Counted from the first letter of the stretch, positions 4,706 to 64,000 are shown. The stretch is 64,000 bases of DNA from Patescibacteria group bacterium (GCA_004297215.1 SCUM01000001.1:219642-283641), one strand, 5' to 3'. Notes: generated by a model not told the origin, from the letters alone. A program made the numbers and translations.

Positions 4706-5326
4706 TTAGCGGGAATAGAATTCGACGATCATGGTGGGATCGAACACCGAGCGGAGGTCTTCCCCGTCGGGCACGGCCGTGACCTTGCCCGAGAGCGTCC
4801 CGATGTCCAAGGCGAGCCACTTGGGCGGCTCGAGCTTGGCGATGCGCTCGGCAAGCCCCTGCAGGAGCCCCTTGCCTTTCTTATTCTCCTTGAACGAAAC
4901 CGTGTCGCCCACGCGCAGGCGGTACGAGGGGATGTTCACCGGCTTGCCGTTCACCAGGAAGAACCCATGGCTCGCCATCTGGCGCGCCTGGCGGCGGGTC
5001 TTGGCGAAGCCGAGGCGGTAGGCCGCGTTATCGAGGCGCAGCTCGAGCATCTGCACGAGGCGCGTGGCCGTGTTGCCTTTCTGGCGGGAGGCCTCCTCGA
5101 AATAGTTGCGGAACTGCGTCTCAAGCACCAGGTACAGGCGCTTTGCCTTTTGCTTCTCGCGCAACTGGGTGCCGTACGAGGACAGGCGCGGCCGGCGCAA
5201 GCTTTGCGCGGGGCCGTGCACGCCCGGCGGGAACGCGCGGCGCTTGACCGCGCATTTCTCGCGCCCGCACAGGGACACCCCTTCGCGGCGGCACATCTTG
5301 CAGGTGGTTTTCAGCGTCTTGCCCAT
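4706..5326 (-). CDS. rpsD: 30S ribosomal protein S4 (with N-terminal Cys4 zinc ribbon)
   Basis: 206 aa with CKMCRREG..C..EKC plus the S4 domain. Confidence 0.93.
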   Translation of the reverse strand: MGKTLKTTCKMCRREGVSLCGREKCAVKRRAFPPGVHGPAQSLRRPRLSSYGTQLREKQKAKRLYLVLETQFRNYFEEASRQKGNTATRLVQMLELRLDNAAYRLGFAKTRRQARQMASHGFFLVNGKPVNIPSYRLRVGDTVSFKENKKGKGLLQGLAERIAKLEPPKWLALDIGTLSGKVTAVPDGEDLRSVFDPTMIVEFYSR

Positions 5327-12035: not shown

Positions 12036-12067
12036 ACGTCTCGATGCCTCAGGAATCCCTGAAGCCT

Positions 12068-12796
12068 TCACGCCTGCGGCCTTCCCGCCTTTCCATGCCC
12101 GAACGAATAGTTGAACAGGTCGTGCTTGATCGGCCCGAGCGTGGCCAGGTGCAGCTCGGCCAGCATGAACTTGAGCGCGATGTTCACGCGTCCGTCGCGG
12201 TCGAGCCGGCGCACGGACACCGGCACCTTGAACGGCAGGAACCCGAACGAGCCCGCGCGCGCGCCACGGCGCGCGTAGTCGTGGTCTTCGCAGAACGTGA
12301 CGCTCTCGTCGAACCCGCCGATCGCGTCATGGAGCGACCTGCGTACGAGCAGGCAGAACCCGGGCGCATGCGGGAACGCCTTGCCGAGGGCGCGGACGTA
12401 GCGGTTATAGGCGCCGTGCATCACATGGTCGAGTGGGGCGTCGGAAAGGGGGAACACGTCGCATGTGGCGAGGTCGAGCTTGCGGTCTCGCATGCACGCG
12501 ACGGCCTGCTCGAGGAACGTCGGGTCATCAAGCTCCACGTCGGCGTCGAGGAACAGGATGAGCTCGGTGGATGCATGCGCGGCGCCGCGATTGCGTCCGG
12601 GACCTGGCATGCCGCCATCCACCACGCGCGCGCCAAACGAAACCGCGACCTCTCGCGTTCGATCGGTCGAAAACGCGTCCGCCACGATGATTTCGGCAGG
12701 CTGAAGCGTCTGGCGACGGATGGACGCGAGAAGGCGCGGCAGGTAAGTCTCTTCGTCTTTGGCGGGGATGACGATGGTCAGCACACTACCACCCAT
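12068..12796 (-). CDS. family 2 glycosyltransferase
   Basis: GT2 core ...ADA.S.D.T and a DAD motif. Start at the Met abutting the upstream TAG. The C-terminal 7 aa are encoded by a REP copy. Confidence 0.65.
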   Translation of the reverse strand: MGGSVLTIVIPAKDEETYLPRLLASIRRQTLQPAEIIVADAFSTDRTREVAVSFGARVVDGGMPGPGRNRGAAHASTELILFLDADVELDDPTFLEQAVACMRDRKLDLATCDVFPLSDAPLDHVMHGAYNRYVRALGKAFPHAPGFCLLVRRSLHDAIGGFDESVTFCEDHDYARRGARAGSFGFLPFKVPVSVRRLDRDGRVNIALKFMLAELHLATLGPIKHDLFNYSFGHGKAGRPQA

Positions 12797-12797
12797 C

Positions 12798-13277
12798 CTA
12801 GCCGATTTTGCGTCCAAGGACAAACAACGCGACCCCTGTCGCCACGGCCACGTTGAGCGACCGTTTGGCGCCAGGAAGCGGGATTTCCACGGTCGCATCG
12901 CAAGCCGCAACGACTTCTTTGGGGACGCCTTCCACCTCGCTGCCCAGGATCAGGGCGAGACCGGGAGATTGCTTCGTCCCCTTCGACAAGCTCAGGGTCC
13001 TCGCAAAGACAGATAGGTCAACTGCCCCTTCGCGATTGTCGAGCGCGACGACCGTCATCCCCTTTCCCTTCAATTCCACGATGAGCGCCAGCACGTCTTC
13101 CCGCTTTTCCCACGGCATACGGTCCTGACTTCCCAAAGCCGTCTTCGCGATCTCATTCCTTGGCGGAGTCCCGGTGTATCCGGTAAGGTACAATTTCTCC
13201 ACGCCAAAGGCATCGGCGCTCCGAAAGATGGAACCGACGTTATGGAGGCTGCGGATGTCGTGGGCGATGAGGAACAT
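12798..13277 (-). CDS. SPOUT (SpoU/TrmH-family) RNA 2'-O-methyltransferase, TrmL-like
   Basis: 159 aa with SpoU motifs (..LILGSE..GV.., E.PLPGA..SLNVA.A). Confidence 0.65.
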   Translation of the reverse strand: MFLIAHDIRSLHNVGSIFRSADAFGVEKLYLTGYTGTPPRNEIAKTALGSQDRMPWEKREDVLALIVELKGKGMTVVALDNREGAVDLSVFARTLSLSKGTKQSPGLALILGSEVEGVPKEVVAACDATVEIPLPGAKRSLNVAVATGVALFVLGRKIG

Positions 13278-17105: not shown

Positions 17106-17222
17106 GCGAAAACTTGAAACGTGAAAACTTGAAATCTTGAAAGGAAACGTGAAAACTTTTGAAAAGGCGAAACGGATAAACCGCTTCGTCTTTTTTCATC
17201 GTTTCAAAGTTTCAAGTTTTTC
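17106..17222. terminator. AT-rich intergenic palindromic repeat structure (GAAAACTTGAAA x3 direct + inverted copy) between convergent era and pilD; probable bidirectional terminator
   Basis: Direct and inverted repeats seen in sequence. Confidence 0.5.
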
Positions 17223-18506: not shown

Positions 18507-18527
18507 AGGGTCTGGATGAAGAATGTG

Positions 18528-18581
18528 GGATGAAGGATGTAGGATTTCTTTGCGTATCCTACATCCTACATCCTTCATCCT
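18528..18581. promoter_or_regulatory. 19-bp perfect inverted repeat GGGATGAAGGATGTAGGAT / ATCCTACATCCTTCATCC(C) with heptamer duplications, between response-regulator stop and pilin start
   Basis: Seen directly. It overlaps the last codons of the response regulator. Confidence 0.45.
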
Positions 18582-18969
18582 ACATTCTAACCCGTTCCTT
18601 TACGAGCCGCTCCACGTGCGCGCGCGTTTCCGTCGGCGTGACATGGCCCTTGAGCAGGTATCCGTCCGTGCCGCAGGCAAGCGTCTCGCGCACATGCTCG
18701 CGGTCCCCGCGCGCCGTGAGCGCGACCACGACGATGCCGGAGCTGGTCGGGTCTTCCTTGAGCGCGCGGACGAGCGCGAACGCCTCCGGCACCGTATCGG
18801 CGTCGAGGAGCATCGCGTCCGGAGCCTTCTTCGCGACGAGCTTGCGCGCCTCCTTCGCGTCCGGCGCGAGGCGCGCGACCCACCGGGCCGCCTCGAACCG
18901 CCGCGCGTAGATGCCGGCGAACGTCGCGTCCGGATCAACGATGAGCAGCTGGCGCTTGCGGGCAGGCAC
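18580..18969 (-). CDS. stand-alone response regulator receiver (CheY-like) protein
   Basis: 129 aa with LLIVDPD, MLLDAD, VVALTARGD and the GTDGYLLKG receiver motifs. Confidence 0.7.
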   Translation of the reverse strand: MPARKRQLLIVDPDATFAGIYARRFEAARWVARLAPDAKEARKLVAKKAPDAMLLDADTVPEAFALVRALKEDPTSSGIVVVALTARGDREHVRETLACGTDGYLLKGHVTPTETRAHVERLVKERVRM

Positions 18970-18970
18970 A

Positions 18971-20083
18971 CTACTCGATGTCGCGCATCGCGAGCCCGAT
19001 CGACACGGCCATGCGCGGTCCGATCTCGTCGAGCACCGGACGCAGGTCCGCCGGGTAGGACACCCGCGCCCACGGGTCGCCGCGATAGACGTTCAGGTTG
19101 AGCGAGGCGGAGAGGAACTCGGGCACGCCCGGGAGATGCGCGCTGCCGCCGGTCACCACCACCTTTTCCACCTTCTTGAACTCCGTGAGCTCCATGCGCG
19201 CGTACAGCTGGAGCGCGTACTGGATCTCGTGGAGGATGGGTCCCATCGCAGCCTCCACCGCGGGCGGGAGCTTGCCTCCGGGCATGGCCGGCTGGTTCCC
19301 CAGGTCGGTCTTGATCTGTTCGGCCTCCGATTCGGGCACCGACATCTGCTCCATGATCTTCTTCGTGACGGACGATCCTCCCACGTTGATGGACCTGGTG
19401 AGGAACGGGATGCCTTTCTCGACCACGGTGATGTTCGTGCGCCCGAACCCGATGTCGAGGATGAGCACCGCGCTCTTGTCCTTGCCGATCAGGCTGCGGA
19501 TGAGGGCGAAGGACTCGGTATCGATCGCCTGGAGCTCGAGCTTGGCCGTGCGGAAGATCTCGATGTACTTCTGCACGAGCGTCTTGGCCGCGCCCGTGAC
19601 GAGCACGCGCACGTAGTCGGACGGCTTGCCAGCCGGAACCGTTTGTTCTTTTCCTGCGGCCTTCGTGCCTGAGGCCTTCCCCGCCTGCAGAGGATCGATG
19701 AACGTCGAATAGGTGATCATCTCCGAGATGGGAAGCGGGGTGAGCTTGGCCACCTGCGCGTCGATGAGCGGTTTCATCTCCTTCTCGTCCTTGCGCCGCG
19801 GCACCGCCACGATCGTCGAAAAGATCGAGGACAGCGGGAGCGCCGCCATGGCCTTGTTCGTCTTCACCCCGGCGCGCTTGCACAGTTCGGCAAGCGTCTC
19901 CCCGGCGCCCTTGACGTCCTCGAACGGCGAAACCACGGCCTCTCCCGGCTTGCGCTCGGAATAGCCGTAGGTCAGCAGCGTGGCGCGGCCCTTCTCGTTG
20001 GAAAGCTCCACCACCTTGACCCCCCCGGCGCCGACGTCCACGCCGAGGAAACTTTGCTTTTTCGGAGCGCCGAACAGGGCCAT
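18971..20083 (-). CDS. pilM: type IV pilus assembly protein PilM (actin-like ATPase)
   Basis: SFLGVDVGAGGVKVVELS N-terminus and the actin fold ~350 aa. Confidence 0.75.
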   Translation of the reverse strand: MALFGAPKKQSFLGVDVGAGGVKVVELSNEKGRATLLTYGYSERKPGEAVVSPFEDVKGAGETLAELCKRAGVKTNKAMAALPLSSIFSTIVAVPRRKDEKEMKPLIDAQVAKLTPLPISEMITYSTFIDPLQAGKASGTKAAGKEQTVPAGKPSDYVRVLVTGAAKTLVQKYIEIFRTAKLELQAIDTESFALIRSLIGKDKSAVLILDIGFGRTNITVVEKGIPFLTRSINVGGSSVTKKIMEQMSVPESEAEQIKTDLGNQPAMPGGKLPPAVEAAMGPILHEIQYALQLYARMELTEFKKVEKVVVTGGSAHLPGVPEFLSASLNLNVYRGDPWARVSYPADLRPVLDEIGPRMAVSIGLAMRDIE

Positions 20084-20107: not shown

Positions 20108-20509
20108 TCAGGTGTGCGCGTCCAGACACGCATTCACCGCCGCATCCGCCTCCGTGTTCTGCTCGCGTCGCACGTGCTTGAACGTGACGCGCTTGAAGCC
20201 GAGGGCGAGGTTGTGCACCTGCATGAACAGCTTCGCGAGGTCCGGATTCTTCACCTTATACTCGCCCTTGAGCTGCTTCACCGCCAGTTCCGAATCCATG
20301 CGCATCTCCACTTCCGTCGCCCCATGCCGCTTGGCCGCTTCGAGCGCGATGACGATGCCGGTGTACTCCGCCACGTTGTTGGTGGCGCGACCCAGGAACC
20401 GCGAGAGCGTCTCGAGCACTTCGCCGTCCGCGGTCTTCACGACCGCGCCGCCGCACGCCGGCCCCGGGTTGCCGCGCGATCCTCCGTCGGAATAGGTGAT
20501 GAGTTTCAT
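20108..20509 (-). CDS. rnhA: ribonuclease HI
   Basis: MKLITYSDGGSRGNPG, with DEDD catalytic residues in the pattern. Confidence 0.85.
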   Translation of the reverse strand: MKLITYSDGGSRGNPGPACGGAVVKTADGEVLETLSRFLGRATNNVAEYTGIVIALEAAKRHGATEVEMRMDSELAVKQLKGEYKVKNPDLAKLFMQVHNLALGFKRVTFKHVRREQNTEADAAVNACLDAHT

Positions 20510-20523
20510 ACGGATAGGCAGGA

Positions 20524-20588
20524 AGGCCTCAGACGTGAAGGCGTTAAGGGTAATCCCTGAGGCCTTGTCCGCCTAAGGCCTTCACGCC
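20524..20588. repeat. full-length copy of dispersed palindromic REP/MITE-like element (L-arm units ..GTGAAGGCGTTAAGG / centre / R-arm CCTGAGGCCTTGTCCGCCTAAGGCCTTCACGCC)
   Basis: Shares the core GGCCTTGTCCGCCTGAGGCC with at least 12 other loci. It supplies the recJ stop codon. Confidence 0.8.
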
Positions 20589-22396
20589 TTCAAGTCAACG
20601 ATCCTCAACTGCAATTCCCGGTTCCCCTTCCACTCGTTCACGCCTAATTCGAAGGCGACGTCCAATGCCTGCCCCGGTTTCAGTCGCTTCACCCATTCCC
20701 CGAACCGGAACCCGATGAACTTGGCTATTCTCCCACCCTTGCCGCGCGCCGACAACCGGAGATGCTTCCCGTCCGCGCCGACCGTGTCAAAGGCGACGAC
20801 GGTCGCGCGCGAGGCGAACAATGGACGCGGGTTCTTCTCGCCGAACGGTTCGAGTTTCTGCACGGCCTCGAGCAACGCCCAATCCACGTCCTCGAGGTCG
20901 AGGTCGGCGTCCACGCGCAGGATCGGACGCAAGTCATCCGGCTTGATGTGCGCGTCGGCGTGCTTATGGAGCGATTCGACGAGGAACGCGAACCGTTCTT
21001 CCCCGCTCACCGAAAACCCGCACGCCTGCGGATGCCCGCCGAACCGATCGAGGTGTTCCTTGCACGCGTGAAGCGCCGCGGTCACGTCGAACCCGCCGAA
21101 GCTACGGCCGGAGCCGACATAACGCTCGCCATCTTTTCCGACCGCATACACCGGACGACAAAAATCGTTCACCAACTTGCCCGCGACGAGCCCGACGAGT
21201 CCCGGCGACCAGCCGGCGCTTGAGACGATGACGCACTTCGTGTCACCGGGATCGCCGACGAGACGCTTCGCCTCCTGATACATCGCCTCGGACGCCTTCT
21301 GACGATCTGCGTTCACTTCGTTGAGACGCATGGCAAGCTCGGCCGCTCGCGTCGGGTCTTCTTCGAGCAACAACTCGACCGCGCCACGTGCGTGCTCCAT
21401 GCGTCCAGCTGCATTCAGCCGCGGTCCGATCTGAAAACCTATGGTCACGGTGTCGAGCTCCCCGCCCTTGTTACCAGCCGCCTCGAGGAGTTTTTGGATG
21501 CCCACGCGCCGCGTCTTGTTGAGCACTTTGAGCCCATACGTCTCGAGCACGCGGTTCTCCCCCATGAGCGGCATCACGTCCGTGACGGTCGCGATGGCGA
21601 CGAGGTCGAGCAGCCATTTCTCATACCCTTCCGCGAAGCTCGCACCACGTTTAGATGCCTCATGGATAAGCGCGCTCGCCAACTTAAAGGCGACTCCTGT
21701 CCCGCACAGCGTCTTGTTCGGATACGTCTCCCCTGGCACTTGCGGGTGCAGCAGGATGGCCGCGTCCGGGAGCGCGTCGGGCACGGCATGGTGATCGCAC
21801 ACGATGGTGTCCACGCCCAGCTCGCGGCCCCGGTCGATCGCGTCCTTGTTGGAAATGCCGCAGTCCACGGTGATGACCAGCTTTGTCCCTTCGGCCGCAA
21901 GCTTTTCCATGGTCGCGACGGACAGGCCGTAGCCTTCCTTCTCGCGGTGAGGGATATAGGAGGAGAGCTGAAAGGCGGTAGAGGCCCGCAGGCCCGCAGG
22001 GTTTTCCCTGAAAGCCTTGTCCGCCTGGGGGCCTTGTCCGCCTAACGATCGACAGATGTCGCACAGCGTGGACATGAGCACGGTCGTGCCGCACACGCCG
22101 TCCGCGTCGTAGTCGCCGTGGACCGTGATGCGCTCGCCGGCCTCAAGCGCCGCGAAGACGCGCTCAACGGCCGCTTGCATGTTGCGAAACATCGAGGGCG
22201 AGTGCGCATCACGACTCCAATCCGGCCCCAGGAACACGTCCATTTCGGCTTGGGTCCTCACTCCCCTGTTCCACAGCAACCGTAATGCCACCGGATGCAC
22301 GTCCGGGAATGCCGCCCGAGCCTCGTCGGGCACGGCCGGATCGGTTATCCACACGCGCTCTTTCATGGCACGAGGATAGCACAAACGGACCCGCAC
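20582..22396 (-). CDS. recJ: single-stranded-DNA-specific exonuclease RecJ
   Basis: DHH motifs (HGDYDADG) and DHHA1. Contains a ~26-codon in-frame REP insertion (..GGQGPQADKAFRENPAGLRAS..). Confidence 0.88.
   Translation of the reverse strand: MRVRLCYPRAMKERVWITDPAVPDEARAAFPDVHPVALRLLWNRGVRTQAEMDVFLGPDWSRDAHSPSMFRNMQAAVERVFAALEAGERITVHGDYDADGVCGTTVLMSTLCDICRSLGGQGPQADKAFRENPAGLRASTAFQLSSYIPHREKEGYGLSVATMEKLAAEGTKLVITVDCGISNKDAIDRGRELGVDTIVCDHHAVPDALPDAAILLHPQVPGETYPNKTLCGTGVAFKLASALIHEASKRGASFAEGYEKWLLDLVAIATVTDVMPLMGENRVLETYGLKVLNKTRRVGIQKLLEAAGNKGGELDTVTIGFQIGPRLNAAGRMEHARGAVELLLEEDPTRAAELAMRLNEVNADRQKASEAMYQEAKRLVGDPGDTKCVIVSSAGWSPGLVGLVAGKLVNDFCRPVYAVGKDGERYVGSGRSFGGFDVTAALHACKEHLDRFGGHPQACGFSVSGEERFAFLVESLHKHADAHIKPDDLRPILRVDADLDLEDVDWALLEAVQKLEPFGEKNPRPLFASRATVVAFDTVGADGKHLRLSARGKGGRIAKFIGFRFGEWVKRLKPGQALDVAFELGVNEWKGNRELQLRIVDLKA
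21966..22043. repeat. REP-like element inserted in-frame inside recJ CDS
   Basis: GCCTTGTCCGCCTGGGGGCCTTGTCCGCCT plus an AGGCCCGCAGGCCCGCAGG arm. It interrupts the conserved DHH region. Confidence 0.75.
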
Positions 22397-26687: not shown

Positions 26688-26929
26688 AGCTGCGGCTGCT
26701 CCGTGTCCAAGCCGATCGCGGCCTGATACTCCGCGAACCGTCCGCGAAGCGCTTCGGCCATGCCCACGGTCGACGAGTCGTCATGCATTTCGCCGAATCC
26801 GCGATGCCGTTCGATCACTTCGTCCACGAGGTCGACGTATTGCTCCTTCGTGTTGATGCCCTCGGCGCGGCCGAGCTCGACGATCTCCAGGAAGATTTCG
26901 GACGGGTCGACGTTGAGGAATTCGATCAT
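26684..26929 (-). CDS. small hypothetical protein (81 aa), 4-nt overlap with downstream MBL gene
   Basis: ORF; operon position only. Confidence 0.4.
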   Translation of the reverse strand: MIEFLNVDPSEIFLEIVELGRAEGINTKEQYVDLVDEVIERHRGFGEMHDDSSTVGMAEALRGRFAEYQAAIGLDTEQPQL

Positions 26930-26935
26930 ATGAGG

Positions 26936-27012
26936 ATAGGCGTTAAGGCTTCAGGCGTGAAGGCGTTAAGGGATTTCCTGAGGCCTTATCGCCTGAGGCC
27001 TTCATGCCTGAG
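26936..27012. repeat. full-length REP-like element (inverted arrays of ~15-bp units around GGATTTCC centre)
   Basis: GCGTTAAGGCTTCAGGCGTGAAGGCGTTAAGGGATTTCCTGAGGCCTTATCGCCTGAGGCCTTCATGCC. It encodes the last 7 aa and stop of the VKOR gene. Confidence 0.8.
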
Positions 27013-41796: not shown

Positions 41797-41882
41797 AGGC
41801 GATAAGGCCTCAGGCAAGAAGGCCACAGATTGACGAATCCTTCAAATCCCTGAAGCCTTGTCCGCCTGAGGCCTTCACGCCT
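41797..41882. repeat. full-length REP-like element between sigma factor start and upstream gene stop
   Basis: GGCGATAAGGCCTCAGGCAAGAAGG..centre..CCTGAAGCCTTGTCCGCCTGAGGCCTTCACGCC. Confidence 0.8.
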
Positions 41883-47458: not shown

Positions 47459-47849
47459 TATCCCTATGTCAAAACCTTCCGCCTACCACATCATGCGCGT
47501 CGCAATGGGGATCACCTTCGCCTGGATCGGCATCCTCATCTTCAAAGAGCCGGAATCTTGGGGCGGGTTCATCCAGCCTTGGGCCGCGAACCTCCTCCCC
47601 GTCCCGCTCGAACTCGCCATGATCGGCACGGCCGTGCTCGACCTCGCTATCGGCTTGCTCCTGCTCGTGGACGCGTTCGTCTGGATCGCCGCGACCGTGG
47701 CCGTTGCGCATCTCGCCATCGTCCTTACCGTGTCCGGCATCGATTCCGTCACCGTGCGCGACATCGGGCTTCTCGGCGCCGCCATCATGCTGTTCTGGGA
47801 AGACGCGCCCGAGACGCTCAAGGCGAAATTCCGCCGATTCCAGCACTAG
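47454..47849 (+). CDS. DoxX-family membrane protein
   Basis: 131 aa with multiple TMs. Start at the internal Met immediately after the REP copy. Confidence 0.5.
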   Translation: MPIPMSKPSAYHIMRVAMGITFAWIGILIFKEPESWGGFIQPWAANLLPVPLELAMIGTAVLDLAIGLLLLVDAFVWIAATVAVAHLAIVLTVSGIDSVTVRDIGLLGAAIMLFWEDAPETLKAKFRRFQH

Positions 47850-49032: not shown

Positions 49033-51591
49033 TCATTTCAGCAACCGCTTGAGGTAATGGCCGGTGGCGCTCCTCGCGTTGCGCGCGATGTCCTCGGGCG
49101 TGCCCGTGGCCACGACCTCCCCGCCCTTGTCGCCGCCCTCGGGGCCGAGGTCGATGATCCAGTCCGCGGTCTTGATCACGTCGAGGTTGTGCTCGATGAC
49201 GACCACGGTGTTCCCCTTCTTGACCAGCGTATGGAGGACCTCCAGCAGCTTCCGCACGTCCGCGAAGTGCAGTCCTGTCGTCGGCTCGTCGAGCAAGTAC
49301 AGCGTGCGGGTGGTCGAGCGCTTGCACAATTCGCTCGACAGCTTCACGCGCTGCGCTTCCCCGCCCGACAAGGTCGTCGCGCTTTGGCCGATCTTGAGGT
49401 AGCCGAGGCCGACTTCGACCAGGGTGTCGAACTTGTCCGCGATGGGCGAGATGTCCTTGAAGAACTCCGCGCCTTCCTCGACCGTCATCTCGAGGACATC
49501 CCAGATGTTCTTCTCCTTGAATTGCACCTCGAGCGTCTCGCGGTCGAACCGCTTGCCGCGGCACACCTCGCACGCCACGTGCACCGTGGGGAGGAAATGC
49601 ATCTCGATCGCGATCGTGCCGTGGCCCTCGCAGTTCTCGCACCGGCCGCCCGGCGTGTTGAAGCTGAAGCGCCCCGGCTTGTACCCGCGGAAGCGCGCCT
49701 CCTCGGTGGCCGCGTACAGGTCGCGGATGGGGCCCCAGGCTCCGGTGTAGGTGGCCGGGTTGCTGCGCGGCGTGCGGCCAATCGGCCCCTGGTCGATGAG
49801 GATCGCCTTGTCGATGTATTCGATGCCGAGTACGGCCTTGTGCTTGCCGGGCGTATGCGCCGTGCCGTAGAGGCGCCGCGCGATCTCCTTGTACATCGTC
49901 TCGTACGCGAGCGTGGATTTGCCCGAGCCGGATACCCCCGTGATGCACACGAAGCGACGCAACGGCAGGTCCACGTCCACGTTCTTCAAGTTGTTCTCTG
50001 AGGCCCCGCGTATCTTGATGACGTCCTTGGCCGGGCTGCGGCGCTCCTCGGGGACCGGCACCATCTCGTCGCCGCGCAGATAGGCGGCCGTGAGCGACTT
50101 CTTGTCCTCGAAGATCTTGGGCGTGGGCCCGGCGGCCACCACTTCCCCGCCGTGCACGCCCGCTCCCGGCCCGATCTCGATCATGTAGTCGCTGGCGCGG
50201 ATCGTGTCCTCGTCATGTTCGACGACAAGCACGGTGTTGCCCGCGTCGCGCAGTTGCAGCAGCGTCTCGATGAGGCGGTCGTTGTCGCGCTGGTGAAGTC
50301 CGATCGTGGGCTCGTCGAGCACGTACAAGGCGCCCACGAGGCGCGAACCGACCTGGCTCGCGAGACGGATGCGCTGCGCCTCGCCGCCCGAGAGCGTTCC
50401 GGCCATGCGGTTCAGCGTAAGGTAATGCAGCCCCACGTCGAGCATGAAGGTGAGGCGCGAAAGCACCTCCTTCATGGCCGCGCCCGAGATCTCCTTCTCG
50501 CGCTCCGACAGCAGAAGCGTCGACAGGTACGAATGCGCTTGGTCGATCGAGAGCTTCGTGAGGTCGACAATCGACATCCCTGCGGCCTTCCTGCCTGGGG
50601 CCTTGTCCGCCTTGCCCCCCGGCAGCCAGACGTGCAGCGCCTCCTTTCTCAGTCGGTCGCCCGTGCACAACCCGCACAGCTCCTCGCTGAACAGCTCGGC
50701 CGTGCCCAGGCCGTGGCACTCGGGGCAGGCGCCGTAGGGCGAGTTGAACGAGAACAGGCGCGGCTCGATTTCGGGGAACGAGAACCCGTCGTCCGGGCAG
50801 GAGAACTTGGCGGAAAGCAATTGTTCGCGCCCGTCCGGGAAGATCGCCGTCACCACGTCCTCGCCGCGCTCCACGGCCTGTACCAGCGCGTCAGCCAGGC
50901 GTTGGCGCGCGGCCTTCTCGTCCTTGGCGAACAGCGAGAGCGCGATCGTGTCCACCACCACTTCGATCGTGTGCTGCTGGTAGCGCGACAGCTTGATCTG
51001 CTTGCTCAAGTCGTATTCCTTGCCGTCGATGCGCACCTTGGCGAACCCGGAGTTGTAGAGGTCGTACAGCAGCTGGTAGTACTCCCCCTTGCGCCCGCGG
51101 ACCATCGGGGCCAGAATCTTAATCGATCCCTTCCCCCCTTCGGTCCCTTCGGCCACTCCGGCCCCTTTCAGCACCACGTCCACCATCTCTTCATTGGTCA
51201 GCTTCCGGATCTCCTTCTTGCAGGTGACGCAATGCGGCACGCCGATGCGCGCGTACAGCACGCGCAGGTAGTCGTAGATTTCCGTGATCGTGGCCACGGT
51301 CGATCGCGGGTTGCTGGAGTGCGCCTTCTGGTCGATGGAAATGGCCGGCGACAGCCCTTCGATCTCGTCCACGTCCGGCTTTTCCATCTGCCCCAGGAAC
51401 TGCCGGGCGTACGCGGACAGGGACTCGACGTACCGGCGCTGCCCCTCGGCGAAGATGGTGTCGAACGCGAGCGAAGACTTCCCCGAGCCCGAAAGCCCCG
51501 TGATGGTCACGAGCTTGTTGCGCGGGATGTCGAGCGAGATGTTCTTGAGGTTATGCTCGCGCGCGCCCTTGATGCGGATGGAATCGTTCAT
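49033..51591 (-). CDS. uvrA: excinuclease ABC subunit A
   Basis: Two ABC modules (GLSGSGKSS / GVSGSGKST) and zinc fingers. Contains an in-frame REP segment (..[14 protein letters not shown]..). Confidence 0.92.
50578..50614. repeat. REP-like R-arm copy inserted in-frame in uvrA
   Basis: CTGCGGCCTTCCTGCCTGGGGCCTTGTCCGCCTT. Confidence 0.75.
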
Positions 51592-51597
51592 ACGGAT

Positions 51598-51668
51598 AGG
51601 CGGTAAGGCTTCAGGCGTGAAGGCCTTAGGATTTCCTGAGGCCTTGTCCGCCTGAGGCCTTCTTGCCT
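51598..51668. repeat. full-length REP-like element in uvrA-uvrB junction; encodes the last ~12 aa of UvrB
   Basis: AGGCGGTAAGGCTTCAGGCGTGAAGGCCTTAGGATTTCCTGAGGCCTTGTCCGCCTGAGGCCTTCTTGCC. Confidence 0.8.
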
Positions 51669-55397: not shown

Positions 55398-57671
55398 TTA
55401 TAATTTCGCTTTCCGAATTCGCAACGAGTTTAGCACCACCGAGACCGATGAGAAAGCCATGGCGGCGGAGGCGATGATGGGGTTGAGCAGTCCGAGGGCC
55501 GCGAGCGGAATGGCCGCCACGTTGTAGAAGAACGCCCAGAACAGGTTCTGCCGGATGCCGGCGTAGGTGCGCCGCGACAGGCGGATGGCGTCAACGACCT
55601 TTTCCGGTCCGCCTCCGACCAGGACGATCTGTCCGGCCTCGATCGCCACGTCCGTGCCGCTCCCCACCGCGATGCCGAGGTCAGCCTGGGTGAGCGCGGG
55701 CGCGTCGTTGATCCCGTCGCCCACGAACGCCACCTTCTTGCCCGCGGCCTGCGCCTCCTTCACGATCTCGAGCTTGCGCGCCGGGAGCACTTCCGCCTCG
55801 ATGCGGTCGATCCCGAGCTCCCTCCCGACCGCTTCGGCCGTGGCGCGATGGTCGCCGGTGATCATGACGACCTCGACGCCCATGGTCCGCAACTCCTTCA
55901 CGGCTTCCGCTGCCGTCGCTTTCGCCTTGTCCGCGACCGAGATCGCGGCAACGGCCTTCTTGTCGCGCGCGAGCACCATCACGGTCTGCGCCTTCGCCTG
56001 CATCGCGACGACGGCCTCGCGCACGGCGGACACGTCCACGCCCTCTTCTTCCATCAGCCGGAGATTGCCGAGCAGGACCGGTCCCCCGTCGACGGAACCC
56101 GACACGCCGCGTCCGGCCACGGCCGAGAACCCGGACACCTTGGCCGGCGCGACGCCCTTCTCCTTCGCGTACGCGACGATCGCCTTGGCAAGCGGATGCT
56201 CGGAGTTCGCCTCCAAACCCGCCGCGATCGCAAGAACCTCAGGCTCCTCAAGCTCCTTCGTCACCTCGATACCCGTCACCACCGGCCTCCCTTCCGTGAG
56301 CGTCCCGGTCTTGTCGAACATCACGACATGGAACGCCTTGCTGCGCTCGAGCGCCTCCCCGCTCTTGATGAGGATACCCATGCCCGCGCCGCGACCCGTC
56401 CCGACCATGATGGCGGTCGGCGTCGCGAGCCCGAGCGCGCACGGGCAGGCGATGATGAGCACGGCGACGGCCGGCACGAACGAGGCCGTGACGTCGCCCG
56501 TCGCGACGAACCAGGCGACGAAGGTGACGGCGGCCGCGCCGATGACGACCGGCACGAACACGCCGGAGATGCGGTCCACCAGCTTCTGGATCGGCGCCTT
56601 CTTCATCTGCGCGTCAGCCACGAGCCGCACGATCTGCGCGAGCACGGTGTCCCCCGCGGCCTTCTTCACCTCGACGGTCAAGGCTCCCTGCTGGTTCACG
56701 GTCGCGCCGAACACGAGGTCGCCGGCCTTCTTCGACACGGGCAGCGATTCGCCCGTAAGCATGGACTCGTCGAGCGACGAGGCGCCCTCGAGGATGACCC
56801 CGTCCACCGGCACTTTCTCGCCAGGCTTCACGAGCACGACGTCGCCCACTCGCAATCCGTCGACTGCGACTTCTTCCGTTTCCATCCCTGAGGCCTTGTC
56901 CGCCTGAGGCCTTCCCGCCTTAAACCGATGCGCCGTCTTCGCCCCAAGCTCCACCAGCTTCGCGATCGCCGCGCTCGCGCGCCCCTTGCTCTTGGCCTCG
57001 AAGTAGCGGCCGAGCAGGATGAAGGCGGTGATGATCGCCGCGACCTCGAAATAGAGGTGACCGTCGACGAACAGCTGCCACCAGCTGAATAGGAGCGCCG
57101 TAAGCGTTCCCATGGAAATGAGCGCATCCATGCCGAACGAGAGCCGGATCGCCTGCTTTACGGCCACGCGGTGGAACTCCATGCCCGGCCCAAGCACCAC
57201 GATCGTCGCGAGGATCGCCTGCACCCACACCGACGGGCTGATGCCCACGACGTCGCCCGGGATCTCGAGCCCCGACATGACGAGCACGAGCGGGATCGCG
57301 GCGAGCCCGAGTGCGAGCGCCGCCTTTCGTCCGGCCTTCCTCATGTCCGCGCCGTGCGCCATATGCCCGCCCGCCGAAGCCTCGGCGGAGGCGGGGTCTT
57401 CCCCGCTCATCACGGTGCCGTCCGGCATGACATGGCTGCCCGCCGACGCCTTGGCAGAGGCGGAACCGGCGACCGAATACCCTTGGTCCGTGACGGCCTT
57501 ATGCAGCGTCGTCTCGTCCGTTTTCTCGGGATCGTATTCGACCGCCGCCTTCTCAAGCGCGTAATTGACGCTCGCCGAAGATACGCCGGGCGTCTTCGCC
57601 AGGCTGCTCTCGATCTTCACCGCGCAGCTCGCGCAATGCATCCCCCTGATGCCGAAAGAGGTCTTTTCCAT
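55398..57671 (-). CDS. copA: copper-translocating P1B-type ATPase with N-terminal HMA domain
   Basis: GMHCASC, CPC, DKTGTLT and GDGINDAP motifs. Contains an in-frame REP segment ([12 protein letters not shown]). Confidence 0.92.
56887..56922. repeat. REP-like R-arm copy inserted in-frame in copA
   Basis: CCTGAGGCCTTGTCCGCCTGAGGCCTTCCCGCCTT. Confidence 0.75.
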
Positions 57672-59993: not shown

Positions 59994-61694
59994 ATGGCCG
60001 TCATGCGCCGTCCGCATCTGAAACGCGTCCGCGAAGTGGTCGGCGTCTTTTACGACCTCGGGTTCGGCGCGTGGATCAGCCGGATGAAGCTGCAGTTCGT
60101 CGTCCCGATCCACAAGCGATGGATGAGGCGAACAGGCGGACCTGCGGACCTTCCTTGTCCGATCGAAGAAGAAGCGATGACGGAACTCTCGGATGTTCCT
60201 AAAAAACTCCGTCTGGCCTTCGAGCGTCTGGGCGGCACGTACGTGAAGCTCGGACAGATGTTGAGTCTGCGCGCCGATCTGGTGACGCAGCCGGTCGCCG
60301 ACGAGCTCCGTAAGCTGCAAGACAGGGTCCCGCCGTTCCCGTTCGAGCAGGTCAAGGCCTCGATCGAGAAGGAACTCGGGAAGCCGCTAACGAAGCTGTT
60401 CAGGTCTTTCGACAAGAAACCCGTCGGCGCCGCGTCGCTCGCCCAAGTCCACCGCGCCGTGTTGCCGAACGGAAAAACCGTCGCGGTAAAGGTTTTGCGT
60501 CCGAATATCGAGGCGCTTGCCCGGGAGGACATCGCCTTGCTGCGATGGCTCGCAAGGCTTCTGGAGGACCATGTCCCTGCAACCCGTCCGTATCAGCCTC
60601 GCCGGGTGATTGACGAATTTCGGGAATGGACGCTCCGCGAGCTCAACCTGGTGAACGAGGGAGTCAACATCGAGCATTTCCGAACGCTTTACAAAGACGA
60701 CGAACAGGTCTTTATCCCAGGCGTCCACTGGACACACACGAACCCGCGCATCCTGACGACCGACTTCAGCCATGGAATCCACATGGACGATTTCGCGTCG
60801 TATAGGAAAATTCGTTGTTCGCGGAAGGTCGTGGCCGAAATCGGCGCCAGGCTCGTCTACAGCCAGTTCTTTGAACACGGGTTTTTTCATGGCGATCCTC
60901 ATCCGGGAAACTTCTTCGTCCTGCCGAACAACGTCGTATGCCTGCATGATTTCGGCATCGTCGGGCACATCGACGACAAGACGCGGCGCGAACTGATCGG
61001 CTGCTTCGTCGACTTCCTGGAGAAGAACGCTAACGGGGCCGTCAACCACATGCTCCATATGGCGCGCACGGACAACCGGTCGGACGTGGACGGGTTCCGG
61101 CGGGACGTCACGGTCATCCTGGAGCGTTGGTTCTATTCCCCGACGGCCGGAGAACGCCTGTCCATGGCGTTTTATCGCACGGTCGTGAGCGGCGCGTCGC
61201 ACGGGGTGACATTCCCCTCAAGCGTCGTCCTGCTCGCGAAAGCCATCGTCACTATGGAGGGCATGGCGCTCCTGCTCGATCCGAAATTCGACGTCGCGGA
61301 AAAGCTACGGCCGTACCTCCAGCGGATCATGACCCTGGACCTCACGCCGGAGCGTATCGCGAAACGCGGCCGTGACGTGCTGCTCGACGCCGCGAACCTC
61401 CTCGAAGACATTCCCGAGGCAGCGCGTAAGCTCATGAAGCTCGTGCAAAGCGAAGAAATCGGGATCAAGGTCGACGCGACGGATTTCGACGCGATCAAGG
61501 AGGAGATCGACCGTCAGGCCGACATCAAGTTCCTCACGCTTTTTCTTGTGGCCGACCTGCTCGCGACCGCCGTCCTGCTCCATCTGGAAGGGGTGGAACG
61601 CATCGCCGGCATCCCATTCGGGGCTGCCGGCGTGGTGATCGGAACCGTGCTTGGCCTGCTCGTCCTGTCGAAAATCAGGCAAAAACCCTCCTGA
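59994..61694 (+). CDS. ubiB: ABC1/UbiB-family atypical protein kinase
   Basis: AASLAQVH, a kinase core with HGDPHPGN and DFG, and C-terminal TMs. Confidence 0.85.
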   Translation: MAVMRRPHLKRVREVVGVFYDLGFGAWISRMKLQFVVPIHKRWMRRTGGPADLPCPIEEEAMTELSDVPKKLRLAFERLGGTYVKLGQMLSLRADLVTQPVADELRKLQDRVPPFPFEQVKASIEKELGKPLTKLFRSFDKKPVGAASLAQVHRAVLPNGKTVAVKVLRPNIEALAREDIALLRWLARLLEDHVPATRPYQPRRVIDEFREWTLRELNLVNEGVNIEHFRTLYKDDEQVFIPGVHWTHTNPRILTTDFSHGIHMDDFASYRKIRCSRKVVAEIGARLVYSQFFEHGFFHGDPHPGNFFVLPNNVVCLHDFGIVGHIDDKTRRELIGCFVDFLEKNANGAVNHMLHMARTDNRSDVDGFRRDVTVILERWFYSPTAGERLSMAFYRTVVSGASHGVTFPSSVVLLAKAIVTMEGMALLLDPKFDVAEKLRPYLQRIMTLDLTPERIAKRGRDVLLDAANLLEDIPEAARKLMKLVQSEEIGIKVDATDFDAIKEEIDRQADIKFLTLFLVADLLATAVLLHLEGVERIAGIPFGAAGVVIGTVLGLLVLSKIRQKPS

Positions 61695-61994
61695 TCAGCT
61701 CCGCTTCTTCTTTTTTCCCGCGACCCGGCGCTTCAGCGCCTCGAATTCCGACCGCGTCGGGATGTCGAGCGTCTTGAGCGTCTCCCGGACGGCCTTCCCA
61801 TACCCGGTCGACATCGCCCGATATTCCGTTTTCCCCCGGGCGGCCAGGTCCTTGCGCATCCTGGCTTGGTCCTTGGCGGCCAGCTTCCCTTCCTTCAGGA
61901 GGTAATCAAGGAAGTCCGCCGCGCGCTCTTTGGCGAGCGATGCGACTCCCAACCCCAGCATCAACGGCTCCTCGAGCTTCAGCTTTTTTGCCAT
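61695..61994 (-). CDS. small helical protein, phasin-like (uncertain)
   Basis: 99 aa, Lys-rich coiled-coil. Confidence 0.4.
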   Translation of the reverse strand: MAKKLKLEEPLMLGLGVASLAKERAADFLDYLLKEGKLAAKDQARMRKDLAARGKTEYRAMSTGYGKAVRETLKTLDIPTRSEFEALKRRVAGKKKKRS

Positions 61995-62011
61995 ATGCCG
62001 GCTTCTGTAGG

Positions 62012-62278
62012 TTATTTCTTAGGCGCGCAGCCGTTCTCGTGGAAGGCATGGAAGACGAGCGAACCCGCGAACCCATACGCGAAACTCCAGAGGGCGCCCA
62101 CGATGATGCTCGGCAAGGCGAACCCCGTGAACCCCGGGAACAGGAACTTGAGCGAGGTGAGATGGAACTCCTGGACCGCCGGGTCCGTGCTCCACATCTG
62201 CCAGATGAGGCAAAGCGCGTACAGGATGACGAAGAACCCGGCAACGCGCAGAGCGTGTGACGACTGGGCTTTTTGCAT
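62012..62278 (-). CDS. small membrane protein (88 aa)
   Basis: Start at an internal Met with AAGGAG upstream. Two or three TMs. Confidence 0.45.
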   Translation of the reverse strand: MQKAQSSHALRVAGFFVILYALCLIWQMWSTDPAVQEFHLTSLKFLFPGFTGFALPSIIVGALWSFAYGFAGSLVFHAFHENGCAPKK

Positions 62279-62307
62279 ACTCCTTAAGGAGTTAAGGATA
62301 AGTTGGA

Positions 62308-62817
62308 TTATTTCCCTTTCACCCGTTCCACCCCGTTGAGCGCCGAGATGGTGGCCGCGACCTCTTCCGGCACCTTCGCCTTCCAGTCGCCCCCTGCTTT
62401 CATCATCGCGCGTACGTCCGTCGCGCTGATGCCCGGCACCTCCTTGATGTCCTTCACCTCCTTGCCGAGCGCGACGAATGGCGCCTTGGTGGCCGGGTTG
62501 CCGGTCCACACCTGGTGCACCTCGCCTGCCTTTTCCAACACGGCCTTGGCCCACGCCTCATCAGAAGCCATGTCCGGGACCATGACGAACTCCACGTCGA
62601 AGTTTGGGATGATGTCCTCGCCCTGCAGCGCGCGCTGGATCATGTCGCGGCGCTCCTCGGCCGTGAACGGGTTTTCGTTCGTGCCGCTCTTGTCGGAGGA
62701 ACCGATCGCCACTACCAGCTTGCCGCATAGCTTGGCCATTCCCTTCACGACCAGCATGTGGCCGTTGTGGAACGGCTGGAAACGGCCTGGGAACAGGCAG
62801 GTGAATTTGGTAGGCAT
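62308..62817 (-). CDS. nadM: nicotinamide-nucleotide adenylyltransferase (archaeal-type, cytidylyltransferase fold)
   Basis: GRFQPFHNGH HxGH motif. 169 aa. Confidence 0.8.
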   Translation of the reverse strand: MPTKFTCLFPGRFQPFHNGHMLVVKGMAKLCGKLVVAIGSSDKSGTNENPFTAEERRDMIQRALQGEDIIPNFDVEFVMVPDMASDEAWAKAVLEKAGEVHQVWTGNPATKAPFVALGKEVKDIKEVPGISATDVRAMMKAGGDWKAKVPEEVAATISALNGVERVKGK

Positions 62818-62826
62818 ATGATGAGA

Positions 62827-62931
62827 GGCGATAAGGCCGCAGGCGATAAGGCCGCAGGCGATAAGGCCGCAGGCGATAAGGCCGCAGGCGATAAGGCCGC
62901 AGGCGATAAGGCCGCAGGCGATAAGGCCTAA
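62827..62931. repeat. 7 contiguous 15-bp tandem units GGCGATAAGGCCGCA (last unit variant) abutting nadM start codon
   Basis: Counted directly: 6 perfect units plus 1 variant. The unit equals the REP L-arm subunit. Confidence 0.9.
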
Positions 62932-62969
62932 GCGCTGAAGCCTTGTCCGCCTGAGGCCTAAGGCCTGAC
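62932..62969. repeat. REP-like R-arm copy (GCGCTGAAGCCTTGTCCGCCTGAGGCCTAAGGCC); supplies stop codon of DUF362 gene
   Basis: Family core. Confidence 0.8.
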
Positions 62970-63839
62970 AAAAAATTTTATGGACCTCTTCCAGTCCGTC
63001 TCGCCGACCACGTCGATCCGCGTTTCATCCAACACACCGTACCCCCGCTGCGACGCCAGGGCAAGATAGCGGATGCCCGAGGGATCGATGCCCATGAGCC
63101 GGCAACCGATCGAATCGACCGCGACCGCGTCCGTGCCGGCGAGGGCGAGCTTCATCTCGACCGGGTCGCCATGCGTGGGTCCGTCCCCTTCCATGGCGAG
63201 GAAGGCGTCCACGACGCACAGGTCGGGCTTGGTCTGGCGCAGGAGCTCCGCGATCGTCTCGTGGTGGGCGTCGTTCCCCTGCGCGTGCAGGTACGGAGCG
63301 CGCGCCCAGATCCGGCCCGAAAGCCCGATGCTGGAAGCCGCCACCCACGTGCCGATGGTCCAATTCTTCACGCACAAGGAGACGCCGACGTCGCGATGGG
63401 TCTTCATGACCGTCAGGTCGACCGTAAAATCGGATTCCGCGACCGTTTTCGCGATTCCCATGGGCCCGAGCGATCCGTCGCGCTTCACGTACGTGCCCGG
63501 CACGGTCGCGTCGTCGTTCAGGTCAAACAGCCGGACGTCCGGGTATTCGCCAGGCAGGTTCTCGTACCCGAAATGGCGGAACGCGGCCTTGGTGCCGTGA
63601 TACGAGGCGTCGGCGATGACGACGGGCGCGGCCGTCTTCGAACGGACGACGTCGAGCACGGCCCGTACCGCGTCCGCATGCGTCGAGGCGAGCTGGTTCA
63701 AGTGGTGCACCAGGTTTGGCTTGATGAGTACCGAACGGGCCGACACGAGCCCCGCGAGGACATCGGGAGGCAACGCCTCGATGGCTCGTCGGACGTTTTC
63801 CCTGCGGTTTTCCCCACGGATGACAGATACCTGTACCAT
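62958..63839 (-). CDS. DUF362-domain protein
   Basis: VLIKPNLV motif. Start at the internal Met. Confidence 0.5.
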
Positions 63840-63860
63840 AGTGTCGAAAGTATATCCCAT

Positions 63861-64000
63861 ATGCTGGGCATATTCGACTCCGGATTCGGCGGGCTCACGG
63901 TGCTCAAGGACATCCACCGCCGCCTTCCTTCCCTCTCCACCGTCTACCTCGGCGACAACGCCCGGGCGCCGTACGGGACCAGGCCCCAGGACGAGATCTT
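63861..64000 (+). CDS. murI: glutamate racemase (5' part; continues beyond window)
   Basis: [18 protein letters not shown]...[12 protein letters not shown]-terminal signature. Confidence 0.8.

Follow-up and report, generated by a model that had tools for sequence, protein, structure and literature searches.

A tandem array between DUF362 and nadM in a Patescibacteria genome is probably the expanded arm of a dispersed palindromic element

Selfish repeats that are small and palindromic and insert into genes in frame are classically known from Rickettsia. The BOX element of Streptococcus pneumoniae, with the modular structure boxA-(boxB)n-boxC, is dispersed, hairpin-forming and often located near gene starts, and the copy number of mycobacterial interspersed repetitive units (MIRU) differs between strains. 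Rickettsia palindromic elements (RPEs) are characterised by their in-frame spread into unrelated housekeeping genes, according to a review that also mentions BOX elements (PMC10969869). For Patescibacteria (CPR), no description of such elements was found in our literature searches. Here we describe an RPE/BOX-like modular palindromic element in a 64,000-nt stretch of a Patescibacteria genome (hereafter the window; G+C 63%). The element is newly recognised, and the kind of selfish repeat to which it belongs is already known.

By far the strongest tandem array in the window, detected by Tandem Repeats Finder (TRF) at 62826-62928 (period 15, 6.9 copies, 100% matches, score 206), is located between a DUF362 gene and a nadM-like gene. 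The features of this locus are listed below.

62308..62817, minus strand: nadM-like gene for a nicotinamide-nucleotide adenylyltransferase, 169 aa, ATG at 62815-62817
62818..62826, minus strand: 9-nt spacer from the array to the nadM ATG, CUCUCAUCA-U in mRNA sense, without a Shine-Dalgarno (SD) motif
62827..62916: six 15-bp units without mismatches (plus strand GGCGATAAGGCCGCA, mRNA sense UGCGGCCUUAUCGCC; TRF, exact matches)
62917..62931: seventh, variant unit GGCGATAAGGCCTAA with 2 mismatches, adjoining the loop (pattern search)
62932..62935: short loop GCGC (sequence, predicted fold)
62936..62951: 16-nt unit TGAAGCCTTGTCCGCC in the opposite orientation (core-motif search, predicted pairing)
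62952..62966: partial second unit in the opposite orientation, TGAGGCCTAAGGCCT, with the DUF362 stop and the last two DUF362 codons
62958..63839, minus strand: gene for a DUF362 protein of 293 aa, located upstream of nadM (Pfam DUF362, E = 3.7e-38)
63849..63854, minus strand: TATACT, a -10-like hexamer 9 nt before the DUF362 ATG, in the same layout as at other starts

Pattern search found exact GGCGATAAGGCCGCA units at six positions (starts 62827, 62842, 62857, 62872, 62887 and 62902). TRF and pattern search therefore agree with the six perfect units and one variant at 62827-62931 that the initial annotation of this DNA had reported, and the count of seven is based on one assembly. The spacing between array and ATG had been given as 10 nt, whereas it is actually 9 nt (62818-62826). 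The arm after the array was correctly said to carry the DUF362 stop codon, which is located at 62958-62960 within TGAGGCCTAAGGCCT (CTA on the plus strand, i.e. TAG). The segment 62827..62916 is the expanded ATG-proximal arm of a palindromic element, and the unit TGAAGCCTTGTCCGCC at 62936-62951 is predicted to be able to pair with any unit of the array. In our view the array probably arose when slippage lengthened one arm of a dispersed palindromic element that inserted at the DUF362-nadM junction, and it is probably neutral or nearly so.

The element and the beginning of the array are confirmed by an independent assembly. Logan contig L047 (run SRR8426588) is 100% identical to positions 62900-64000 of the window over 1101 nt, and it ends about two units into the array. 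The stop of this contig inside the array shows that short k-mers cannot count the units, and it illustrates how such elements can break short-read assemblies. There is a small chance that the count of seven is an assembly artefact, that is, that the element and some tandem units are real while their number was mis-estimated from short reads. The k-mer-based assembly of SRR8426588, identical up to the array and terminated about two units into it, would fit such an error, as would the array length of 105 bp, which is near short-read length. However, the source contig is continuous over 842 kb, unique sequence is found at the junctions on either side, and one end of the array is marked by the variant unit. 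The 7-unit array would also be a convenient strain marker.

The array unit belongs to a family that is dispersed over the window. With at most 3 mismatches, 25 matches to the unit were found, while 3.26 ± 1.82 were expected and none of 100 shuffled sequences reached 25. A looser core motif yielded 73 matches (about 12 in shuffled sequences), which are clustered at 13 loci. Altogether the family comprises 44 units of 15 or 16 nt at 13 loci in 64 kb, with the consensus GGCG-(GAC/NN)-AAGGC-CTC-A, the middle part being either GAC or two variable nucleotides. The array unit is one mismatch away from the units at 26979 and 41798. At the nadM locus seven units are adjacent and in the same orientation, while the tandem number is 1-2 at the other 12 loci. 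The initial annotation had called the array unit a REP subunit. It is indeed a unit of a dispersed, REP-like palindromic family (44 units), but REP in the strict sense does not apply, since there is no GTAG head and several copies are intragenic.

Four copies have what we call the canonical form:

20517..20588: between recJ (stop 20582) and an RNase H-like gene (ATG 20509)
26939..27008: between two minus-strand genes, hairpin of -38.2 kcal/mol
41798..41881: hairpin of -58.6 kcal/mol, first unit GGCGATAAGGCCTCA, 1 base off the array unit
51599..51667: between two minus-strand genes, hairpin of -46.2 kcal/mol (z = -6.7)

Canonical copies span 69-84 nt, with a pair of units on one side of a short loop and an inverted pair on the other. 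With the RNA of the transcribed strand folded, the four hairpins range from -38.2 to -58.6 kcal/mol (z from -5.0 to -6.7); the invariant conserved blocks make up the paired stems, with the variable 2-3 nt in internal loops. Each of the four copies is located between consecutive minus-strand genes, with the stop codon of the upstream gene inside the element and the downstream ATG 6-9 nt past the last unit. For example, the gene upstream of the copy at 51599..51667 ends inside it at 51626, and the uvrA ATG (51591) is 7 nt beyond the element. The nadM copy shares the canonical layout and differs by its ATG-proximal arm, which has seven units instead of two.

Past the pyrimidine-rich end of the element, the sequence GCC-TATCC-(N2-4)-ATG recurs in 4 of 6 cases and on either gene strand (junction sites 20498-20516, 26918-26938, 51580-51598 and 47459-47468). 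This junction could reflect a target preference, a start context borne by the element, or selection. No convincing target-site duplication was seen at the nadM and uvrA insertions, and no mobilising enzyme, transposase or other, was identified. In particular, no RAYT (IS200/IS605-like Y1) transposase occurs among the 15 window proteins scanned with Pfam, in this 64 kb of the 842-kb genome. Two other unit-built hairpin elements are present in the window. The one at 18508-18593 has GGATGWA units and 38-nt arms (-47 kcal/mol) and lies directly upstream of a minus-strand ATG, and the one at 17108-17220 consists of GAAAACTTGAAAC units beside a terminator-like hairpin that separates convergent genes.

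Besides the intergenic copies, members of the family are located inside genes and keep the reading frame:

12060-12089: copy at the C-terminus of the glycosyltransferase-like ORF 12068..12910, in frame
19655-19685: copy in a pilM-like ORF, in frame, with a gappy PilM alignment
21974..22042, minus strand: three-unit hairpin copy in recJ, in frame, 23 codons
32710-32901: copy in the dnaX linker, in frame
50581..50611, minus strand: two-unit copy in uvrA, in frame, encoding an 11-letter peptide
56887..56919, minus strand: two-unit copy in a copA-type P-type ATPase gene, in frame, encoding a 12-letter peptide

The intragenic copies encode short peptides rich in G/K/A/P/Q/D. The site of the UvrA copy corresponds to a 12-residue gap against the solved Geobacillus UvrA (PDB 2r6f), RecJ has about 26 extra residues at its copy compared with a solved RecJ (PDB 8y30), and CopA has 10 extra residues at its copy compared with A. 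fulgidus CopA (PDB 3j08). The UvrA stretch is missing as well in the closest orthologue (P0226, 90% identical) and in four others. The copies at 50585 and 56893 were also considered as gene boundaries, with a new ATG after the element, and this was rejected because the UvrA and CopA structure alignments show in-frame insertions.

Further observations concern UvrA and another part of the window. Three Uhrbacteria UvrA homologues (P0228, P0230 and P0233) have other G/K/A/R-rich inserts of 6-13 residues, e.g. APGGKAGRREGPHG, at residues 327-338 of the window UvrA, which may derive from related elements that entered this loop earlier or independently. The window UvrA (49033-51591) has 852 aa, and its Uhrbacteria homologues have 835-930 aa. 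It aligns with Geobacillus UvrA in two blocks, with roughly residues 330-417 of the solved protein skipped, and from these alignments an internal domain of UvrA appears to be partly missing across the lineage. At 1332-2772 of the window, two neighbouring ORFs on the minus strand (236 and 221 aa) have no Pfam match, and their third-position G+C of 0.43-0.45 is much below that of the remaining sequence; this DNA may be of foreign origin.

The product of the gene downstream of the array matches Pfam CTP_transf_like (E = 4.6e-16), i.e. it has a cytidylyltransferase fold. Its best NCBIfam match is NF002243, with 125.9 bits at a cut-off of 127, and its homologues are named nicotinamide-nucleotide adenylyltransferase in several sources. 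Homologues start 3-5 residues ahead of the conserved FTCLFPGRF motif. Among the collections searched, TAK03811.1 matches the protein at 100% identity and the next NadM in rank at 91%; Candidatus Uhrbacteria are the nearest relatives with a name. The DUF362 orthologue in GCA_001791045.1 (L001) likewise has 293 aa.

The gene order DUF362-nadM is conserved in Uhrbacteria, and many homologues occur together on a contig. The two genes are separated as follows:

GCA_001791045.1 (L001, NadM 91% identical): 2 nt, junction GTAAGACCATGAttATG
L048/L049: 1 nt
L050/L051: 11 nt
P0124 contig: 1 nt
This window: 140 nt

Both sides of the gap are conserved, namely the DUF362 C-terminal FVRP and the N-terminus of NadM. 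As the gap is 1-11 nt in four relatives and 140 nt here, the element and its array are a lineage-specific insertion. The sequence had been annotated as a nadM 5' leader; with the genes of four relatives 1-11 nt apart, it is rather an intercistronic spacer that results from the insertion of the element.

The family itself is also restricted in distribution. No family cluster was found in L001 (20.5 kb) or L052 (12 kb), both with 91% NadM identity, while the window has 13 in 64 kb. Among 185,579 species genomes (one genome per species, the source genome not being among the matches), no Patescibacteria contained an array of at least 3 units. The 37 matches to at least 3 consecutive units in this search were unrelated chance matches in other GC-rich phyla. 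In JGI metagenomes, there were no matches to two exact units. The absence of clusters from L001 and L052, and of the array from the species genomes and JGI metagenomes, indicates that the family proliferated recently in this lineage. A scan of JGI data with the common inverted-unit motif gave two matches, one of them by chance. The second is a two-unit stretch, GGCACGAAGGCCTCAGGCGGACAAGGCC, at 2680-2715 of L046 (Ga0155146_14), in frame in a RadA-like ORF of a contig with 66% G+C; judging from this match, the family may be present in at least one other organism.

Other repeats were seen in relatives at the corresponding site directly ahead of nadM, with unrelated ACATCCT/ACATGTT units in L003 (214-282) and unrelated TTAGTAG/CTACTAA arms in L005/L006 (about 4920-4990). 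From these palindromes or tandem repeats, start-proximal junctions seem to be a recurrent home of such sequences in Uhrbacteria. DUF362 is missing altogether from one relative with 91% NadM identity, L052. Elsewhere the pair is conserved and usually 1-11 nt apart, which hints at a functional link between the DUF362 protein and NAD metabolism.

The comparison with relatives also bears on whether the array is translated. Two ORFs run through it, one with a YRLRP repeat on the minus strand (62561..62971) and one with seven GDKAA repeats on the plus strand (62758..62931). Both are open, and GDKAA resembles peptides of the intragenic copies such as ADKASG and ADKAPG. Nevertheless, both overlap the well-supported nadM, out of frame or antisense, and the 1-2-nt junction in relatives leaves no room for such a gene, so that a coding function of the array is scarcely credible. 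The frame of the YRLRP ORF differs from those of both real genes, and its earlier dismissal as an artefact is upheld.

The likely transcription of the pair would make the element intercistronic. In a scan of 61600-64000, which gave one unrelated site only, the spacer had no sigma-70-like promoter and no intrinsic terminator. Since the genes abut in relatives and no recognisable promoter is present in the spacer, we infer that DUF362 and nadM are co-transcribed, with the element between the two cistrons. The TATACT hexamer at 63849..63854 is the likely candidate for the promoter of this transcript. When the window was searched with Rfam, two tRNAs alone passed the gathering thresholds; a match to isrG in the nadM region (14 bits, threshold 100) is meaningless.

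As the initial annotation had stated, nadM has no SD motif: CUCUCAUCAU upstream of its AUG contains no purine-rich stretch. This is the norm in the window and not a peculiarity of nadM, as SD-like motifs are missing at most predicted starts. Many starts have a TATACT-, TATCAT- or TATCCT-like -10 box 6-10 nt from the ATG. Examples with such a box and no SD are the starts at 20083, 11459, 22366, 63839 and 59994. The position of these boxes and the small number of SDs suggest that leaderless or near-leaderless mRNAs are widespread. The nadM genes of relatives lack an SD as well, and in L052 the upstream sequence of nadM reads TTGAAA-N17-TAGTCT-N8-ATG.

These -10-like boxes raise the question of whether the element brings a promoter, or iterons to which a protein binds. 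Each unit contains TTATCGCC, the last TATCGC is 10 nt before the ATG, and this resembles the TATCGT-N9-ATG arrangement of L002 and L004, in which TATCGT precedes the nadM ATG by 9 nt; many genes of the window in addition have a -10-like box 6-10 nt ahead of the ATG. However, the hexamer is without the conserved final T, there is neither a -35 box nor a TG extension, and the promoter scan was empty here. Canonical copies read TACCGC, TAACGC or TCCTGC at this position, so it is not a property of the family, and with a spacing of 15 bp, successive sites do not face the same side of the helix. Taken together, such a role is highly improbable.

The structure of the nadM copy was predicted at the RNA level. 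The 196-nt RNA folds with -70.9 kcal/mol (z = -3.1). In the predicted minimum free energy (MFE) structure the AUG region is unpaired, and the purine-rich unit after the DUF362 stop is predicted to pair with array units. The frequency of the MFE structure in the ensemble is 0.008, and with only 0.8% of the ensemble in this structure, many pairing registers compete. To describe start-codon access, the transcript was rebuilt with 1-13 units, and the cost was taken as the free energy of keeping positions -18..+12 around the AUG unpaired:

1 unit: 9.3 kcal/mol
2 units: 10.6 kcal/mol
3 units: 5.6 kcal/mol
4 units: 7.7 kcal/mol
5 or more units: plateau at about 5 kcal/mol
6 / 7 / 8 units: 5.4 / 5.5 / 4.9 kcal/mol

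In its native context, the nadM start costs 5.1 kcal/mol to open, compared with 11.4 ± 4.2 kcal/mol for 32 other starts in the window, and is the second lowest among the 33 starts examined there. The starts downstream of the canonical copies (n = 4) require 9.2-27.2 kcal/mol. According to this model, the expansion would free the nadM start codon relative to the 2-unit form, while one-unit steps around the present length would have no effect.

The initial annotation had proposed phase or rheostat-like variation by 15-bp steps. In a contingency locus of this kind, gain or loss of 15-nt units would alter how long the nadM leader is and how it folds, and so switch or tune NadM synthesis within the population. 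Perfectly identical units, which suggest that slippage is recent and probably ongoing, agree with this proposal, and so do the position of the array 9 nt from the ATG and the drop in opening cost, which is 9.3-10.6 kcal/mol at 1-2 units and about 5 kcal/mol at five or more. However, the model predicts saturation at the current number of units. The modelled cost is 5.4, 5.5 and 4.9 kcal/mol at 6, 7 and 8 units and shifts only below about 5 units, and this flat cost argues against a working rheostat, although the expansion may have brought a one-off compensatory benefit. Furthermore, NadM is a core housekeeping enzyme of NAD synthesis and has no role at the surface, in host interaction or in restriction, the mutation rate of 15-nt units is far below that of the 1-7-nt tracts in contingency loci, the array is wholly absent from relatives, and only 1 of the 13 family copies is expanded. 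We therefore regard this explanation as very doubtful; the array as a regulatory switch is unproven, and phase variation finds no support here and runs counter to the modelled series around seven units.

A compensatory benefit would have arisen if the insertion set a strong hairpin at the nadM start and broke the translational coupling to DUF362, and the expansion of the proximal arm was then selected for displacing the hairpin and exposing the start codon. In line with this, the model predicts that canonical copies block the start that follows them (9.2-27.2 against 5.1 kcal/mol at nadM), and the cost falls between 2 and 5 units in the series. On the other hand, four other genes including uvrA retain the 2-unit form and are presumably functional, the basis of this explanation is thermodynamic prediction alone, and with a single expanded locus selection is indistinguishable from chance. 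On balance we think it unlikely. The unusually open nadM start (5.1 vs 11.4 ± 4.2 kcal/mol in the model) could nevertheless mean that the expansion was selected and is not neutral. A wider reading, which we consider tentative and still unlikely, is that, in an organism with few SD sites, the array is a hypervariable VNTR that sets the distance between a strong hairpin and the nadM start, whereby the synthesis of NAD cofactor would be tuned, or rescued once the selfish element had inserted, and that Uhrbacteria carry lineage-specific, unit-built palindromic elements which target start-proximal junctions and protein loops; the unrelated unit-built palindromes ahead of nadM in relatives are in keeping with the latter.

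Expansion of an inserted arm with little or no effect on fitness remains the explanation that we prefer. An element has spread through an Uhrbacteria-like Patescibacteria genome, and its nadM copy landed in the 1-2-nt junction of the conserved, probably co-transcribed DUF362-nadM pair, where it supplies the DUF362 stop codon and ends 9 nt short of the nadM ATG. The 15-nt subunit of one arm would then have expanded locally from the usual 2 units to 7, most likely by replication slippage or unequal recombination. As six units are identical, the expansion is presumably recent, with the caveat that six identical units are also expected of a selectively maintained or rapidly varying locus. On the bicistronic mRNA, the purine-rich unit past the DUF362 stop would pair with one of the seven pyrimidine-rich units, in many possible registers, and the start region of nadM would stay single-stranded. 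The main consequence would be that nadM is now 140 nt from DUF362 and that the hairpin has moved off the start codon, probably without any regulatory use.

The family itself is more interesting than the array: with 13 loci in 64 kb it is dense, it is specific to the lineage, and its copies are tolerated in frame by DNA-repair and transport proteins of a minimal genome. It means that a host-dependent minimal Patescibacteria genome of roughly 0.84 Mb is still colonised by such elements, which reshape operon junctions and probably also loops at the surface of proteins for repair and transport (UvrA, RecJ and CopA). The nadM locus provides a test case for translation starts downstream of a strong hairpin where SD sites are few.

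Among known systems, RPEs are similar in that small hairpin-forming palindromes are scattered through a reduced genome, both in intergenic regions and in frame inside housekeeping genes, and in that the insertions add short peptide segments, keep the reading frame and are missing in orthologues, as for UvrA. Unlike RPEs, which are roughly 100-150 bp, the elements described here are built of 15-16-nt units with canonical copies of 69-84 nt, their host is a Patescibacterium, and one arm can expand in tandem. The likeness rests on behaviour, and a sequence relationship is not expected, given that host phylum and unit architecture differ.

REP/BIME of enterobacteria and pseudomonads are likewise high-copy short palindromes in transcribed operon gaps, with stable RNA hairpins beside stop codons. 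However, the 44-unit consensus has no GT[AG]G head (GTAG), the units are not self-palindromic, and the family is not strictly extragenic, with copies inside uvrA, recJ and copA. Contingency loci of Haemophilus, Neisseria and Campylobacter also place perfect tandem repeats right in front of a start codon, but here the unit is 15 nt instead of 1-7 nt, the gene is a housekeeping gene, and the predicted effect is saturated at the current length. MIRU-VNTR share the position of tandem repeats in intercistronic operon gaps, touching the upstream stop and the downstream start. In contrast, MIRU units are 40-100 bp, not palindromic, and carry small coupling ORFs; in the ORF listing of the region, no small coupling ORF bridges DUF362 and nadM. 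Finally, as in BOX, the element is modular and the tandem number of one subunit varies between loci, whereas boxB is about 45 nt and accompanied by distinct boxA and boxC modules, and here a single kind of unit makes up both arms, with 1 of 13 loci expanded.
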